A stretch of 32,000 bases of DNA from an uncultured archaeon (GTDB taxonomy: Archaea > Asgardarchaeota > Thorarchaeia > Thorarchaeales > Thorarchaeaceae). The position numbers and the translations under genes are program-made. Location of the stretch: the NCBI GenBank assembly GCA_964354495.1, contig CAYHAA010000011.1, positions 76,811 through 108,810 on the forward strand. The letters run 5' to 3'. Positions 18,455 through 24,718 of this stretch are shown in pieces (within the stretch, counting starts at the first letter, position 1; every line of letters starts with the position of its first letter). The notes beneath the pieces are model-generated. The model saw only the letters and a list, made by a program, of their open reading frames with translations. It was not told the origin of the DNA and searched no databases.

Positions 18455-19198
18455 TTACCTTCTGCGCCAAAATACAAGTGCGACGACAGCAATAACAGCT
18501 ACTGAGGCTACTCCAATGATCATCGGTGCATAATCGCCACCAATCTCAATGGTATCATAGACCATTACATTGTCGAATGCCCAGTCATCCCAAGTATAGA
18601 ATCCGAAATACTCGGTTGAATTGAGGTCTGTATTAGCGGCCTGGAGAATCAACGATGAATTCAGATATACCGACATCTGACCATCATTTGACCTAGTAAT
18701 CGCAAAATGCTGAAGAACCCCGATGAAGGTCGGTCTTGCTTCACTGATTTGGGTGTCGAGGATCACCTTTGGAAGACTATTCGTGAACTTCTCCAGGGTA
18801 TACGAGTATCTCGCGCCCTCTTCGCCCCCCGCATGGACAATGCTAAACGCATAGTAGTCCGAAACGGTCGGTAGACCTGAACTCATGAAGAAGATTTTGC
18901 AAATATCTAGTTCCTCATCGAATTCATTGCACTCGGTCAAATCAAACTTCCAAGTGCCCACACTGATATTGCTGGGACGATAGGCTCTGACTGCAGAAAT
19001 GTGATCTCCATCAACACCTCTCAACGCACCATCCTCAAGTCTACAAGATAGCAGGGTGGTCCACACTTCATGATCAAGCTCATCGAAAGTTTCGCTCCAG
19101 ACCAAAGTCGCAGCAACTTCCAGAGGTGTACACAAAAGGAAACCGAGAAGTGCGACGAGCCCGAATGTGATGCAATACCTGCGGTTCGCTCTCTTCAC
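18455..19198 (-). CDS. Secreted beta-sandwich (concanavalin A/LamG-like) protein with C-terminal membrane anchor
   Basis: Signal peptide, VWSETFD, GTWKFD, HFAITR..DG.MSVYLN..LIL.A and FDNV.V, then a TM helix and WRRR. Start probably GTG 19198 (track 19225). Fold call is by pattern only. Confidence 0.68.
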   Translation of the reverse strand: MKRANRRYCITFGLVALLGFLLCTPLEVAATLVWSETFDELDHEVWTTLLSCRLEDGALRGVDGDHISAVRAYRPSNISVGTWKFDLTECNEFDEELDICKIFFMSSGLPTVSDYYAFSIVHAGGEEGARYSYTLEKFTNSLPKVILDTQISEARPTFIGVLQHFAITRSNDGQMSVYLNSSLILQAANTDLNSTEYFGFYTWDDWAFDNVMVYDTIEIGGDYAPMIIGVASVAVIAVVALVFWRRR

Positions 19199-19272
19199 TT
19201 GCTTTCCCGAAACCGCAGATATCAAATGGCTATTATTCTGTTTTTCTTTCGGAGCAAACGAGCTCCAATATG

Positions 19273-20223
19273 CTATGCTGGCCTCTCTTTCTCGTAGTTA
19301 GTGCCAACTGCCTTTGGTGGCCTTGCCCTACCGATTCCTGCGAGAGCAATCACCACCAGAATGTATGGTATCATTTGAATGAAGTTATTGTACGGCAGAA
19401 GTTCAGGCACTACCAAGGATATGAATGATTGAAGAGCATCAAGAAATCCAAAGAACATGCCTGCCAAGAAGCACCCTATAGGTCTCCAACCACCGAATAT
19501 CAATGCTGCGAGTGCTATAAAACCTCGTCCTGAGGTCATGAGTTTCCCGAACCTTGAGCTGAATCCAATAGAGAGGCAAGCTCCTCCAAGTCCTGCAAGA
19601 CAGCCGCTTATGATGACAGCAACAAATCGAATTGTTTCCACGTTGACGCCAGCAGCATCTAGCGTGCTCGGGTCCTCGCCAGCGGCTCTGAGTCTCAGAC
19701 CAAAGGGAGTTTTGTACATAATCAGCCAACTAATAATGACTGCAAAGAACATCATATAGATCATGGGCGACAGAGAGCCAAACACTTCACCTATGATAGG
19801 AATTCCTTGAATTCCTGGAATCATGACTTGTGGTACTCTTGTAACTTCATCCGATATACCACGAGCCTGCCAAATCACCTCTAGCATCAGAGTTGTGAAA
19901 CCCGTCGCGAAAAGAATCACTCCTGTTCCACTGACAATATGGTTTCCCTTCAGCTTCACAGTTATTACTGCATGGACAGCAGCGAGCAGCCCGCCAGCTA
20001 CTACGGAGACAACGATGCCAATCCAGGGATTGTTTGAGAAGTATGTGGCCGCTACAGCCCCAAATGCCCCAATCAACATCATTCCCTCAAGTCCGATGTT
20101 CACAATACCTGATCTCTCACTGAACATCCCACCCAATGCAGTCAAGATGAGAGGAGTCGCCATTTGGAGGGTTGTCTCAATCAGCCAGGCAATCATTACA
20201 ACAGAAAACGGATCTACTTGCAT
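19273..20223 (-). CDS. ABC transporter permease (nucleoside/BMP-associated CUT2 type, second permease)
   Basis: ATPL.L.ALGG.FSERSG.VNIGLEG, TPFGLRLRAAGE.P.....AGVNV, GRGFIALAA.IFG.W and PYIL...AL motifs. Confidence 0.92.
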   Translation of the reverse strand: MQVDPFSVVMIAWLIETTLQMATPLILTALGGMFSERSGIVNIGLEGMMLIGAFGAVAATYFSNNPWIGIVVSVVAGGLLAAVHAVITVKLKGNHIVSGTGVILFATGFTTLMLEVIWQARGISDEVTRVPQVMIPGIQGIPIIGEVFGSLSPMIYMMFFAVIISWLIMYKTPFGLRLRAAGEDPSTLDAAGVNVETIRFVAVIISGCLAGLGGACLSIGFSSRFGKLMTSGRGFIALAALIFGGWRPIGCFLAGMFFGFLDALQSFISLVVPELLPYNNFIQMIPYILVVIALAGIGRARPPKAVGTNYEKERPA

Positions 20224-21701
20224 TAGTCAGCCGCCTCCTTCTGTTCATCCCTGTGAGGCTCGAATCTCATCAGTAGAATTGAGATGATCAATCCAAATCC
20301 TGCTAATGTAAGCGCAACAGAAACCACAGAAGATGCTGCCATGGACAGGCCCGAGAGAAGCACCAAAGCCCAGAGAAGAGCCACGATCCAAGTTACTCTA
20401 GTTCGCCGCCAGTCTCTCTTGAAGTGAAATACAGCTACAACAAGGCCTCCAATACTGGTCACAAAACCCAGAAGAAGCAGTGAAAAGTTCGTTGATACAA
20501 ATTGACCGGTGACTAATATTCCCATGAAGGCTCCAAAAACACCGTATGAGAGTGCAATTAGACTCAGAAAGCCTATTCTTGGTCCATCCTTTATCCATCT
20601 TGCATAAGCGACTCCATGGCCTGAGAACCAATCTATTAGGCGAGGTGCAGCGACAAACAGCACAACAAGACCTTGGATGACCTGCACCATCTCGCTTGGC
20701 ACCTCAGCATTTGTCTGCATGAACAGCCCACCTGCCTTGAGAGCGCCGAAGAATATGGCTCCCCCTAGGACTCCCCAAGGGTTATTCCTGCCGAGGACTG
20801 CTACGGTAATACCATCGAATCCCAGACCAGCTGACCAGCCATCGTAGAATCTATGATAGTAACCTTGGACCTCGACAGCACCAGCAAGACCTGCCAGTCC
20901 TCCGCTCAATCCCAGAGCAATTGCCATGCTGCGTTTGGCATCAATCCCTGCGGTTCTAGCGGCATCTTCATTGGACCCAACTGCTCTCATTTCGTAACCC
21001 ATGACAGTCCTACTGATGAAGAAATCCACAAGCACGACGAGTAGTACTGCTATGATAAACCCCCAATGCAAAAATGCACTTCCAAGGATTTTGGGAATTT
21101 CAGCAGAATCGAAAATGACCGGAGAAACACTCCTCCAATCACCAGGATTGTGCATTGGACCCTGTGAAACCATCCACTGGGTGAAGAACACTGCGGCATA
21201 ACTCAACATCATTGTCGTGACAACTTCATGGGCACCCCTGTAGGCTCTGAGTAGACCTGGTAGAAACGCATAAAGGAAACCAACACCGGCACCAATAACC
21301 AGACAAGCTAATTGGTGAACAACAATAGGAAGGGCTATCATATATCCTACGGCAGTTGCGGCTAGGGAGCCCATGTACAGCTGACCTTCGGCACCTATAT
21401 TGAAGAGCCCGCACTTGAAGGCCAAAGCTACTGATAGTCCTGCGAGGAGGAGCGGGGTTGCTCTCCATAGTACTTGGTCAAAATTCAGAATTGCTCCCAA
21501 CGCTAGAGCTGAGAATGCATCAAGTGGATTATATCCTGTCGCGAGCATGATAATGGCTGCTGTGCCCAAAGCAAGTATGATCGATGCAAAGGTATGCAAG
21601 ATATTTCGATGTAGGCTCCTCGAACTCAATCTCATCACAAAACGATCAATGAATGTGAGTTTCGATGTCTGCTCCACCGGAGGAGCACTTTCTTCAATCA
21701 T
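20223..21701 (-). CDS. ABC transporter permease (CUT2 type, first permease) with C-terminal multi-TM extension
   Basis: GLFNIGAEGQ, EV.TT.ML.Y, GYE.RAVG.N..AA..AGI and GFDGI.VA.LGRNNP motifs. The core ends near aa 355 and about 130 further hydrophobic residues follow. Confidence 0.9.
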   Translation of the reverse strand: MIEESAPPVEQTSKLTFIDRFVMRLSSRSLHRNILHTFASIILALGTAAIIMLATGYNPLDAFSALALGAILNFDQVLWRATPLLLAGLSVALAFKCGLFNIGAEGQLYMGSLAATAVGYMIALPIVVHQLACLVIGAGVGFLYAFLPGLLRAYRGAHEVVTTMMLSYAAVFFTQWMVSQGPMHNPGDWRSVSPVIFDSAEIPKILGSAFLHWGFIIAVLLVVLVDFFISRTVMGYEMRAVGSNEDAARTAGIDAKRSMAIALGLSGGLAGLAGAVEVQGYYHRFYDGWSAGLGFDGITVAVLGRNNPWGVLGGAIFFGALKAGGLFMQTNAEVPSEMVQVIQGLVVLFVAAPRLIDWFSGHGVAYARWIKDGPRIGFLSLIALSYGVFGAFMGILVTGQFVSTNFSLLLLGFVTSIGGLVVAVFHFKRDWRRTRVTWIVALLWALVLLSGLSMAASSVVSVALTLAGFGLIISILLMRFEPHRDEQKEAAD

Positions 21702-23533
21702 TGAAGCACCTCCTCCAAGTGTCCGGCCATTAGCAGTCCCAACTCTTGCGGCGTAGTCGTTTCAGGATCTCTTATTGCAACTATTCGACCATCGAATATG
21801 ACTCCGATCCTATCCGAAAGGTTACGTATCTCGTCAAGCTCAGCTGAGATTAGGAGTACACCGACACCTGAATCTCTAAGGAAGATGAGTACATTATGGA
21901 TGTATTCAGTTGCGCCAACATCTAAGCCCCTTGTTGGTTGAGCAGCTACTAGGACAACAGGCTCAGAGCTGAGCTCCCTTGCAACGACTAGCTTTTGCTG
22001 GTTACCACCTGACAGGGTATCTGCAGTATCTGTAACCCTACCTGCTTTAATGGAAAAGCCACGAACAAGCTTCTCCGCATTTCTCTGAATTGCATTGAGA
22101 TTCAGAAAACCTGGGAGTCCTGCTTTCTTGAAAGAGTACGGTGGACGATAGTGGTTTCCCAAGGCCAAGTTCTCTTCTATTGTGAATGGAAGGATGAGAC
22201 CTCTTTTATGGCGATCTTCTGGAATATGGGCGATGCCTGCCTCCCTCATTGTTCTTGGGGCTTTTCCGACAACATTCTTGCCGTTGACATAAATGCTTCC
22301 TTGTTCGGATTTCAGGAGACCTGTTAGAACCTCAACTAGCTCTGTTTGTCCGTTTCCCTCAACCCCGGCTATACCGAATATCTCTCCCGCTCTTACTTGG
22401 AAGGTCACGCCCTTTACTGCCGGCAATCCTTGTGCATCGTTTGCGACAATGTTTTGAACATCCAGCACGACATCCCCAGGGGTAGCAGGGCCTTTCTCAA
22501 CCCGAAACACCACGGGTCTCCCGACCATCATTTGGGCTAATTCCTCGGGGGATGTATCGGCTGTATTCACTGTCCCGACGAGTTCACCATCTCGAAGCAC
22601 ACTGATTCTATCGCACAGGGCCATGGGTTCTCTGAGTTTATGCGTTATCAGGATGATTGTCTTGCCGCTCTCTTTGAATTTCTCCAATGTGACAAAGAGT
22701 TCGTCCACTTCTTGAGGGGTGAGAACGGAGGTTGGTTCGTCAAGTATCAGTATCTCTGCTTCCCGATAGAGCGCCTTGATGATTTCAACACGCTGTTGAA
22801 GACCTACTGAGATGTCAAGGATTCTTGCGTGTGGGTCTATGGCGAGGCCGTTTTCGTTCGCAATTCTCATTATCTTCTCAGCTGCTTCCTGAATTCCCAA
22901 GGGGATGAAATTCATGATGAAATATCGGAAGGTCATCGATATCGAATACAGAAATCGGGCGATTAAGCCCACAATTCCGCTGGTCTTGGTGCGAGGGTAC
23001 AGCTTCTCTATCAGGTAGTTCATGATACTATAAGATCTGTAAGCAGCAATGATGACAAGGATCAGAGCAACTGAGGTTACCAGCGCAGGAATGAATCCGA
23101 CAAATAGAAAGAAGAGAGAAACAGTGAAGGCCAAGACAAGCAAAGTTGTAACGAGGGCAGTTATGTTGTGGCTCCTGCCAGGCGACTCATATCCCATCAT
23201 GATGTTCTCAGTCACAGTAAGTGGTTGTATGAGTTTGAAATGCTGATGCACCATTCCAACTCCTCGGTTTATCGCATCTTCTGGGGATCGAAGAACGACT
23301 TCCTGCTCCTTTATCTTGACAGTTCCAGCAGTGGGTGAGAGGAGTCCGTACAAGATGTTCATTGCAGTGGACTTACCAGCCCCGTTTTCTCCCAATAGCC
23401 CGTGGACCTCACCTTGTTCGATTCTGAGCGTGATGTTCTTGTTCGCCTGAACGCCCCCGGGGAATATTTTAGTGATGTTTTCGAGCTCTACTGCGTAGAT
23501 AGCATGCACCTCCAAGTGGCTGCACTGCGCCAT
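21698..23533 (-). CDS. ABC transporter ATPase, tandem NBD (CUT2 type), with hydrophobic insertion
   Basis: Walker A GENGAGKS, Q-loop MVHQHF, ISVGLQQRVEI, LILDEPT; the second NBD has GVEGNGQ, LSGGNQQK and AQPTRGLD. The start may be ATC 23500 rather than ATG 23533. Confidence 0.92.
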   Translation of the reverse strand: MAQCSHLEVHAIYAVELENITKIFPGGVQANKNITLRIEQGEVHGLLGENGAGKSTAMNILYGLLSPTAGTVKIKEQEVVLRSPEDAINRGVGMVHQHFKLIQPLTVTENIMMGYESPGRSHNITALVTTLLVLAFTVSLFFLFVGFIPALVTSVALILVIIAAYRSYSIMNYLIEKLYPRTKTSGIVGLIARFLYSISMTFRYFIMNFIPLGIQEAAEKIMRIANENGLAIDPHARILDISVGLQQRVEIIKALYREAEILILDEPTSVLTPQEVDELFVTLEKFKESGKTIILITHKLREPMALCDRISVLRDGELVGTVNTADTSPEELAQMMVGRPVVFRVEKGPATPGDVVLDVQNIVANDAQGLPAVKGVTFQVRAGEIFGIAGVEGNGQTELVEVLTGLLKSEQGSIYVNGKNVVGKAPRTMREAGIAHIPEDRHKRGLILPFTIEENLALGNHYRPPYSFKKAGLPGFLNLNAIQRNAEKLVRGFSIKAGRVTDTADTLSGGNQQKLVVARELSSEPVVLVAAQPTRGLDVGATEYIHNVLIFLRDSGVGVLLISAELDEIRNLSDRIGVIFDGRIVAIRDPETTTPQELGLLMAGHLEEVLQ

Positions 23534-23608: not shown

Positions 23609-23641
23609 AAAAAAGAGAGGAAGAGGGGATTATTCCCCTCT
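23609..23641 (-). terminator. Intra-operon hairpin plus U tract between the BMP gene and the ATPase gene
   Basis: Minus strand AGAGGGGA-ATAA-TCCCCTCT (23641..23622), then TCCTCTC-TTTTTT. It begins 12 nt after the BMP stop. Confidence 0.55.
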
Positions 23642-23653
23642 GATACACTAAGC

Positions 23654-24718
23654 CTATGTCCAGTACACATCGTTTGGAACTACGTAGGTTCCGTTCATGA
23701 TCCCGGTTCTGACCATCTCGACCTGAGTAATGACATCTTCTGGCAATGTGAGCAGAGCTTCATTGACCTCGTAGTCGTGTCCACCGTTCGATAGATCGTA
23801 GAACTTCAATCCACTTACCCAGGTGCCGATGACTGCATCATGCATGAGATCGTATGTTGCAATATCAACGCGCTTCAGCATTGAAGTCAGGCAAACTGTT
23901 GGTGGTTCCGGACTGGTTGTGTTTTCGCAACCCAAGTACATCTGAGGCGAGTCGACTCCGATGACCCACAATGGATGCGGTGAGGTCTCATTGTCTTCCT
24001 TAGCCGCTTCAAAGGCACCGAGGCCTGATCTGCCGGCTGCAGCAAACACAATGTCTGCATTACCAGCGTACATGCCCGATGTCATTGTTTTACCAGTGGC
24101 GGTGTCTGCCCAATCACCCACATACTGAGCTACTTTATCAATACCTGGATTCGTGATGTTCGCTCCATAGACATAACCTGCGTAGAACTTACGGATAAGT
24201 GGAATATCCATGCCACCAAGGAAACCGATCTTATCAGTCGTGGTCATGAGGCCAGCAATCGCACCAACAAGAGCTGAGCCCTGGTTCTCAGTGAACAGGA
24301 CTGACGCCACGTTAGTGTAGTTCGTTGGGTCAATGAACATGTCTATGATTGCGAATTCCTGGTCAGGATAGTCATCAGCAACTGCCATTACAGCATCGGC
24401 CTGATCAAAGCCAACGCTGATAATGAGTGCATAGGGCTCGATTAGCCCAGCATGTGCTGCATACCCTCTGAGCAGTGATTCGTAGTCAGATATTGCCGCA
24501 GGCTCTGAGTACGTGAAGTTGATATTGTAGTCATTGTGCGCTTCTGTGGCACCCTCAAGTACACCGTCATTGAATGACTTGTCGCCCAATCCACCCGTTG
24601 CAAATACTATTGCAACCTCATTCGGATTGTGCACTGGTTGAATCATGAGGTATACGCCGACACCAGCGACGCCAATGACCACGATTAGAACTATCGCGAT
24701 AATTGCGTTCTTATTCAT
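23654..24718 (-). CDS. BMP-family (PnrA/TmpC-like) ABC substrate-binding protein, N-terminally membrane anchored
   Basis: GGLGDKSFND, F.IID, G.LVG.IA...T.T.KIGF.GG..IP....F..GY..GA, AD.VF.AAG.SG.G, IGVDS.Q and SMLKRVD motifs. The N-terminal hydrophobic helix has no lipobox Cys. Confidence 0.92.
   Translation of the reverse strand: MNKNAIIAIVLIVVIGVAGVGVYLMIQPVHNPNEVAIVFATGGLGDKSFNDGVLEGATEAHNDYNINFTYSEPAAISDYESLLRGYAAHAGLIEPYALIISVGFDQADAVMAVADDYPDQEFAIIDMFIDPTNYTNVASVLFTENQGSALVGAIAGLMTTTDKIGFLGGMDIPLIRKFYAGYVYGANITNPGIDKVAQYVGDWADTATGKTMTSGMYAGNADIVFAAAGRSGLGAFEAAKEDNETSPHPLWVIGVDSPQMYLGCENTTSPEPPTVCLTSMLKRVDIATYDLMHDAVIGTWVSGLKFYDLSNGGHDYEVNEALLTLPEDVITQVEMVRTGIMNGTYVVPNDVYWT

Follow-up and report, generated by a model that had tools for sequence, protein, structure and literature searches.

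A predicted membrane hairpin nested in the first nucleotide-binding domain of a Thorarchaeota BMP-type importer ATPase

Results

The importer operon

The features of the locus are listed in Table 1, with positions given in the window (the whole 32,000-nucleotide stretch of DNA that was analysed). The genes for a binding protein, an ATPase and permeases A and B are adjacent and co-oriented in an operon whose gene order is kept in 20 related genomes, and by their Pfam assignments they make up a set of the NupO/RbsA type, in which a Bmp-family binding protein is accompanied by two BPD_transp_2 permeases. The ATPase, P0001, also resembles NupO of the Bacillus subtilis NupNOPQ system and RbsA of RbsACB in having two nucleotide-binding domains (NBDs) per chain, with one consensus and one degenerate ATP site (PMC11466899). 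Its membership of the ABC ATPase superfamily is clear from two stretches matching Pfam PF00005 (ABC_tran, E 1.8e-47) and from the presence, in order, of the Walker A, Q-loop, signature, Walker B and H-loop motifs, which are invariant in 70 homologues. The top NCBIfam matches are tandem CUT2-like ATPases, none of which reaches its equivalog cut-off (best score 415.9 bits versus a cut-off of 670), and P0001 falls outside all of the named equivalogs (the putative B6 ABC ATPase NF047930, AraG, XylG, RbsA, MglA and others); we therefore assign no substrate to the importer. The BMP binding protein is likewise under its own NCBIfam equivalog cut-off. P0001 is the sole ATPase of its type in the 3.3-Mb genome (E≤1e-20), and its close homologues are labelled Candidatus Thorarchaeota by their sources.

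The earlier note had described all of the catalytic motifs as intact, and this holds for some of them. The Walker A and Walker B motifs of NBD1 and the signature of NBD2 (LSGGN) are canonical, but the NBD1 signature is degenerate, as are the NBD2 Walker A, which is without its Lys, and the NBD2 Walker B, which is without D-E. This is the usual pattern of the family, with one consensus and one degenerate site (PMC11466899).

Table 1. Features of the importer operon and of the ATPase insertion.
Feature	Window position	Strand	Basis and remarks
Tandem-NBD ABC ATPase gene (611 aa, P0001), BMP/PnrA-type importer	21698..23533	-	ORF; Pfam ABC_tran x2
NBD1 Walker A GENGAGKS, residues 48-55	23369..23392	-	Canonical; invariant in 70 homologues
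Clade-specific insertion, residues ~117-189 (~73 aa), NBD1 helical subdomain	22967..23185	-	Motif spacing
Predicted TM helix 1, residues 124-144	23102..23164	-	Helix in two AlphaFold2 models; mean Kyte-Doolittle (KD) value 1.78 (aligned columns, 46 homologues)
Predicted TM helix 2, residues 147-166	23036..23095	-	AlphaFold2 helix 147-165/182; mean KD 2.10 (46 homologues)
Amphipathic helix continuing TM2, residues 167-182	22988..23035	-	Tyr/Lys/Arg-rich; hydrophobic moment 0.35, mean hydrophobicity ~0
Third helix, residues 187-207, back into the NBD	22913..22975	-	Hydrophobic moment 0.47; C-terminal part aligns with insert-free relatives
NBD1 signature SVGLQQ, residues 242-247	22793..22810	-	Degenerate as in NupO/RbsA
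BMP/PnrA-family substrate-binding protein, N-terminal TM anchor (354 aa)	23654..24718	-	Pfam Bmp E 5.5e-53; first hydrophobic segment residues 1-30
Permease A (492 aa)	20223..21701	-	BPD_transp_2 core residues 75-350; ~135-aa C-terminal extension with extra TM helices
Permease B (316 aa)	19273..20223	-	BPD_transp_2

Several other features of the operon were noted. Between the genes for the binding protein and the ATPase, which are 120 nt apart, is a terminator-like hairpin (window 23622-23641, minus strand) with an 8-bp stem, 5 G-C pairs and a T-rich tail, a possible intra-operon attenuator giving a surplus of binding protein. Directly downstream of permease B (window 18455-19225, minus strand) is a gene whose product (256 aa) has a signal or transmembrane (TM) segment at the N terminus, a TM anchor at the C terminus and no Pfam match; it adjoins the operon in the closest relatives only (70% and 56% identity). 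Away from the operon, the genome has a second Bmp-family binding-protein gene (G000:C1:617716-618711; open frame of 387 aa), with the tandem ATPase of the P0001 type still single. At the start of the ATPase gene (window ~23495-23533), the nearest species (L067:2518-2700, G340) has an in-frame TAG at codon 10 and its next canonical start only after Walker A, and the gene calls of several relatives begin at M-N-I-L-Y-G and hence are without Walker A. A GGAGGTG motif is found in both species, 6 nt ahead of an in-frame ATC, and translation may in fact begin at this ATC (Ile12), a non-canonical start; residues 1-11 of P0001 have low pLDDT and are unconserved.

Position and anatomy of the insertion

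The segment of interest, at window positions 22901-23173 (minus strand), corresponds to residues 121-211 of the 611-aa ATPase, and NCBIfam tandem-ATPase profiles are split across it at profile position 110/111, opposite residues ~115/215. The length of the insert was gauged from the spacing between the T-x-x-E-N-I motif that follows the Q-loop and the S-x-G-x-Q-Q-R-V-E-I of the first signature. This spacing is 130 aa in P0001 and 57 aa in insert-free Thorarchaeota relatives, from which a clade-specific insertion of ~73 aa is deduced, located at the start of the NBD1 helical subdomain; a further ~16 residues, around N-F-I-P-L-G, are common to P0001 and insert-free Asgard relatives. The ~90 extra residues counted in the earlier note are thus right relative to the general family, in which 79 bacterial and archaeal relatives from many phyla have a spacing of 38-47 aa and no TM segment. 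Insert-bearing relatives have a nearly fixed length of 117-132 aa, and 74-75 aa is found in a minor group whose insert is short and soluble. P0001 therefore departs from ordinary relatives of the NupO/RbsA type (NupO and RbsA themselves lie outside the alignment), and the picture of a peripheral subunit with a short loop after the ENI motif and no TM segment does not fit a protein with this spacing and two hydrophobic helices of ~20 residues.

The hydrophobic character of the insert is pronounced. Values for a 19-residue Kyte-Doolittle window are above 1.6 throughout residues 122-171, with a peak of 2.7, and elsewhere in P0001 one window only (548-566, 1.65) barely tops 1.6. An AlphaFold2 model of the full-length protein places helices at residues 124-144, 147-182 and 187-207 with pLDDT of 72-93 (91-93 in the hairpin), and in a model of NBD1 only the hairpin pLDDT is up to 95-97. 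In 46 homologues the layout is the same. A polar N-terminal flank with K/R leads into a hydrophobic helix of ~21 residues, and a turn of ~4 residues, in which Gly, Pro or Asp is frequent, connects this to another hydrophobic helix, ~18-20 residues long. A boundary rich in Tyr, Lys and Arg comes next, and then a pair of amphipathic helices, of which the first (residues 167-182 of P0001) is probably interfacial. The turn has an average K+R content of 0.00 in these homologues and the insert flanks are enriched, with averages of 1.5 and 2.65 K/R, a distribution that fits the positive-inside rule for an in-out-in hairpin with two cytoplasmic ends. The proposal of a membrane hairpin inside the first NBD is thus supported by a predicted two-helix structure that is conserved in the NBD1 helical subdomain.

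Database comparisons do not connect the insert to a described domain. A Pfam scan of residues 112-215 alone returned no family at E≤0.01, including RDD (PF06271) and PLDc_N (PF13396). None of the solved NBDs aligns over the insert (at most 243 of the 336 residues of the NBD1 model are covered), and no solved structure of such a transporter was found by sequence or fold searches.

The hydrophobic helices could alternatively be non-spanning, either as a monotopic or interfacial wedge or as a buried contact with another protein or with a second ATPase copy, a reading favoured by the very short turn of 4 residues and by the extension of TM2 into a long continuous helix in the AlphaFold2 models. 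We consider this very unlikely, because two segments of ~20 residues with KD values of ~1.8-2.1, charge-free turns and K/R-rich flanks typify spanning hairpins, and because recognised integral-membrane domains occur at the same loop in other lineages (see below).

The insertion is genuine and under selection

The insert is in frame and is encoded in dozens of independent assemblies, and contigs from three other studies cross its boundaries or lie within it with no indels or joints. Misassembly is rejected on the strength of the independent assemblies and of these contigs. An intein is rejected as well: inteins are at least ~130 aa long, with an N-terminal Cys/Ser and a C-terminal His-Asn plus Cys/Ser/Thr, and the insert is ~73 aa, hydrophobic, without border residues of this type and without a Pfam match. 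In comparison with the nearest species, dN/dS is 0.23 for the insert, 0.18 for the two helices and 0.055 for the rest of the gene (approximate values, as dS is near 1), which indicates purifying selection on the insert. The rate of evolution of the hairpin is 4-5 times that of the remainder of P0001, which fits a lipid-facing anchor and also a loosely constrained appendage, and identity within the insert is 15-45% among the 46 homologues with the architecture kept. An artefact or non-protein element of any kind, including an intervening sequence cut out on the way to the mature protein, has only the unusual location in its favour, and the intact frame, the multiple assemblies, the indel-free contigs, the purifying selection and the size and composition of the insert make it extremely improbable.

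Distribution in Asgard archaea

We scanned 400 species genomes of the phylum and inspected loci fetched in addition. ATPases with TM inserts are confined to the Thorarchaeota family to which the window itself belongs, in 7 genera and about 18-20 of 86 species; none was present among 26 ATPases sampled from 11 other Asgard families. A search with a profile of the insert against 1.84 billion representatives gave four matches, none outside this family, and among 59 NBD-bearing ORFs in the source genome only P0001 has TM segments inside an NBD. In an Asgard tree built without the insert columns, the 81 rows with an NBD1 insert all group in a single clade, in which the insert is never lost (FastTree SH-like 95), and an IQ-TREE analysis of 72 rows gives one change of the NBD1-insert trait (SH-aLRT 70). 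Insert-bearing and insert-free forms coexist within one genus, and sometimes within one genome, so that they behave as alternative operon lineages.

TM inserts are also found in NBD2 of relatives from the same family, where at least four gains are indicated, two of them atop the NBD1 hairpin and two without it. These inserts lie between the strand that follows Walker A and the I-P-E-D-R-H segment and are of two sizes, 64 aa (two TM helices) and ~167 aa (four); carriers include P0067 and P0072 (697 aa), P0071, P0088 and L047 (768-776 aa), P0076 and P0093, and L050 and L052. P0079 (862 aa) has four helices in NBD1. We note that in the genome G317, whose ATPase bears both NBD1 and NBD2 inserts, permease A (L076:4856-6925) is 690 aa long and is extended at its N terminus by ~190 residues, hydrophobic segments among them. 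We also note three ABC-like ORFs on contig C13 of the source genome G000 (68684, 12641 and 14945), with ~120-150 residues from the Walker A part to the signature/Walker B part; the extra residues are without hydrophobic segments, and these may be soluble insertions or divergent ABC ATPases.

Parallel insertions in Chloroflexota

A shape search of the ESM Atlas identified as its top hit a bacterial cluster of 60 members, with Chloroflexota the commonest phylum, whose 627-aa representative aligns over 578 of the 611 residues of P0001 compared with 502-513 for ordinary ATPases. With the NBD1-only model, 287 of 336 residues align to this cluster versus 242-246 for ordinary ATPases; in an ESM Atlas feature search with residues 100-245 every score was below 0.9. 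We then classified 119 long relatives, obtained by a search with a Chloroflexota NBD1 profile, limited to proteins longer than 579 aa, and 88 of these Chloroflexota-type BMP ATPases have TM segments at the same NBD1 loop. The inserts are 70-230 aa long, contain 2-6 hydrophobic segments and are of several unrelated sequence types; P0223 has an entire RDD domain as its insert (PF06271, E 1.5e-23), and the insert of P0159 matches PLDc_N (PF13396) above the cut-off. Both of the two examples checked are in Bmp-ATPase-permease operons. The statement that CUT2 ATPases have only a short linker here therefore stands for the 79 sampled relatives described above, but not for these long Chloroflexota proteins. 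One Chloroflexia MAG (L167:8354-10564) has an operon in which the ATPase bears a multi-helix NBD1 insert of ~170 aa and the second of the permeases is 736 aa long, roughly double the normal size.

The Chloroflexota ATPases (among them P0223, P0159 and P0141) share with P0001 the protein family, the operon type and the insertion point after an x-L-G-x-E turn, but their inserts are unrelated to it in sequence and often larger. In a joint tree the Thorarchaeota rows are one clade (SH-like 100), separate from the bacterial forms, and well-supported branches require at least five trait changes. Because the sequences are unrelated, the insert profile is confined to its own family and the clades are separate, we conclude that the Thorarchaeota and Chloroflexota inserts are independent in origin. 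These comparisons indicate that the NBD1 loop is a hot spot at which membrane segments have been gained independently many times.

Relationship to the permeases and binding protein

The earlier note had linked the insert with the extended permease and the TM-anchored binding protein, and this link did not survive comparison of the operons. The 10 insert-bearing and 10 insert-free operons compared are alike in their anchored binding protein and in permeases A (~490-523 aa) and B (~316 aa), which rules out co-variation of the hairpin with either the permease extension or the anchored binding protein. The C-terminal ~135 aa of permease A (window 20223-20621) provide extra TM helices in all 20 of these operons, and this extension is a family trait of the Thorarchaeota importers rather than a partner of the insert. 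Derivation of the insert from a permease helix pair was likewise rejected, as hhalign comparison of the insert profile with the permease A and B profiles revealed no similarity. A complex prediction with NBD1 residues 12-340, permease A residues 31-360 and permease B scored 0.54, and a control with permease A swapped scored 0.61.

Discussion

Membrane helices and an NBD are found in one polypeptide in ABC half- and full-transporters, for example those of the ABCB and ABCG types, where the fused TMD is placed terminally and makes up the pathway. The hairpin of P0001 differs from these in being small and nested within an importer NBD fold, with the pathway formed by separate permeases. NBDs are also known to tolerate large insertions between Walker A and the signature, as in the UvrA domains, the Rad50/SMC coiled coil and the regulatory insertion of CFTR NBD1; these are soluble, and that of P0001 is a predicted membrane hairpin. 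We found no description in the literature of TM helices nested in an NBD, and a paper on the Asgard transportome is silent on them too (PMC7997004). Of the concern that such inserts might be both widespread and already described, the first part is borne out in the Thorarchaeota family and in Chloroflexota and the second is not, and an NBD-nested membrane hairpin in a BMP-type importer ATPase is apparently undescribed.

Of all parts of the NBD, the helical subdomain varies most; it touches the permease loops and rotates upon ATP binding (PMC6906923). We think it likely that the insert of P0001 is an in-out-in hairpin that spans the membrane and fixes NBD1 to the bilayer alongside the permeases; its composition, charge bias, modelled structure and conservation make the self-anchoring importer ATPase of the earlier note the best reading. 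The hairpin would be rooted in the alpha-helical subdomain of NBD1, near the cleft that docks a permease coupling helix, and would keep the ATPase subunit permanently embedded in the membrane beside the two permeases. That this loop is membrane-proximal is supported by the recognised integral-membrane domains at the same position elsewhere. The hairpin could be inserted co-translationally as an internal signal-anchor pair and pack on the periphery of the permease dimer, and its main role would be in assembly of the ATPase and its retention at the transporter. Since the helical subdomain turns as the ATP cycle proceeds, passing on or damping this movement may be a further function of the hairpin. 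The occurrence of insert-free orthologous operons in sister species indicates that it is not essential for transport chemistry.

A more active function is conceivable, in which the hairpin is a coupling rod to the permease helices or a sensor of lipids or membrane state that gates ATPase activity. In its favour are the position of the insert in a rotating, permease-contacting subdomain (PMC6906923), the conservation in type of the Tyr/Lys/Arg-rich amphipathic helices after TM2, and the repeated gain at one loop in two domains of life. However, sequence conservation inside the helices is low (15-45%), the presence of unrelated inserts of 2-6 helices (RDD, PLDc_N) at the same loop points to a generic rather than a specific contact, and the insert-free sister operons are otherwise identical; such a function is thus unlikely for P0001, and anchoring is the reading we prefer. 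We count at least five gains of NBD-nested membrane inserts in Thorarchaeota and several more in Chloroflexota, and we can only speculate, as a doubtful generalization, that they form a recurrent, selected and unrecognised class of ABC importers in which the hairpin provides coupling or lipid-sensing beyond a tether. If so, the rotating helical subdomain would have a direct link to the bilayer.

In the textbook view of ABC importers, the ATPase subunits are soluble and contact the membrane subunits via coupling helices only. The ATPase described here is predicted to be integral to the membrane in its own right, with helices emerging from a subdomain that is mobile in the ATP cycle. Proteins of this kind are named simply "ABC transporter ATP-binding protein" in the databases, and this generic annotation is why the architecture has been overlooked; membrane proteome predictions and transporter classifications should allow for TM helices nested in NBDs. 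The repeated evolution of this architecture in Asgard archaea and Chloroflexota suggests that selection favours it in a general way, perhaps through an effect on assembly, coupling or retention, and the natural sister operons with and without the insert make this advantage testable.
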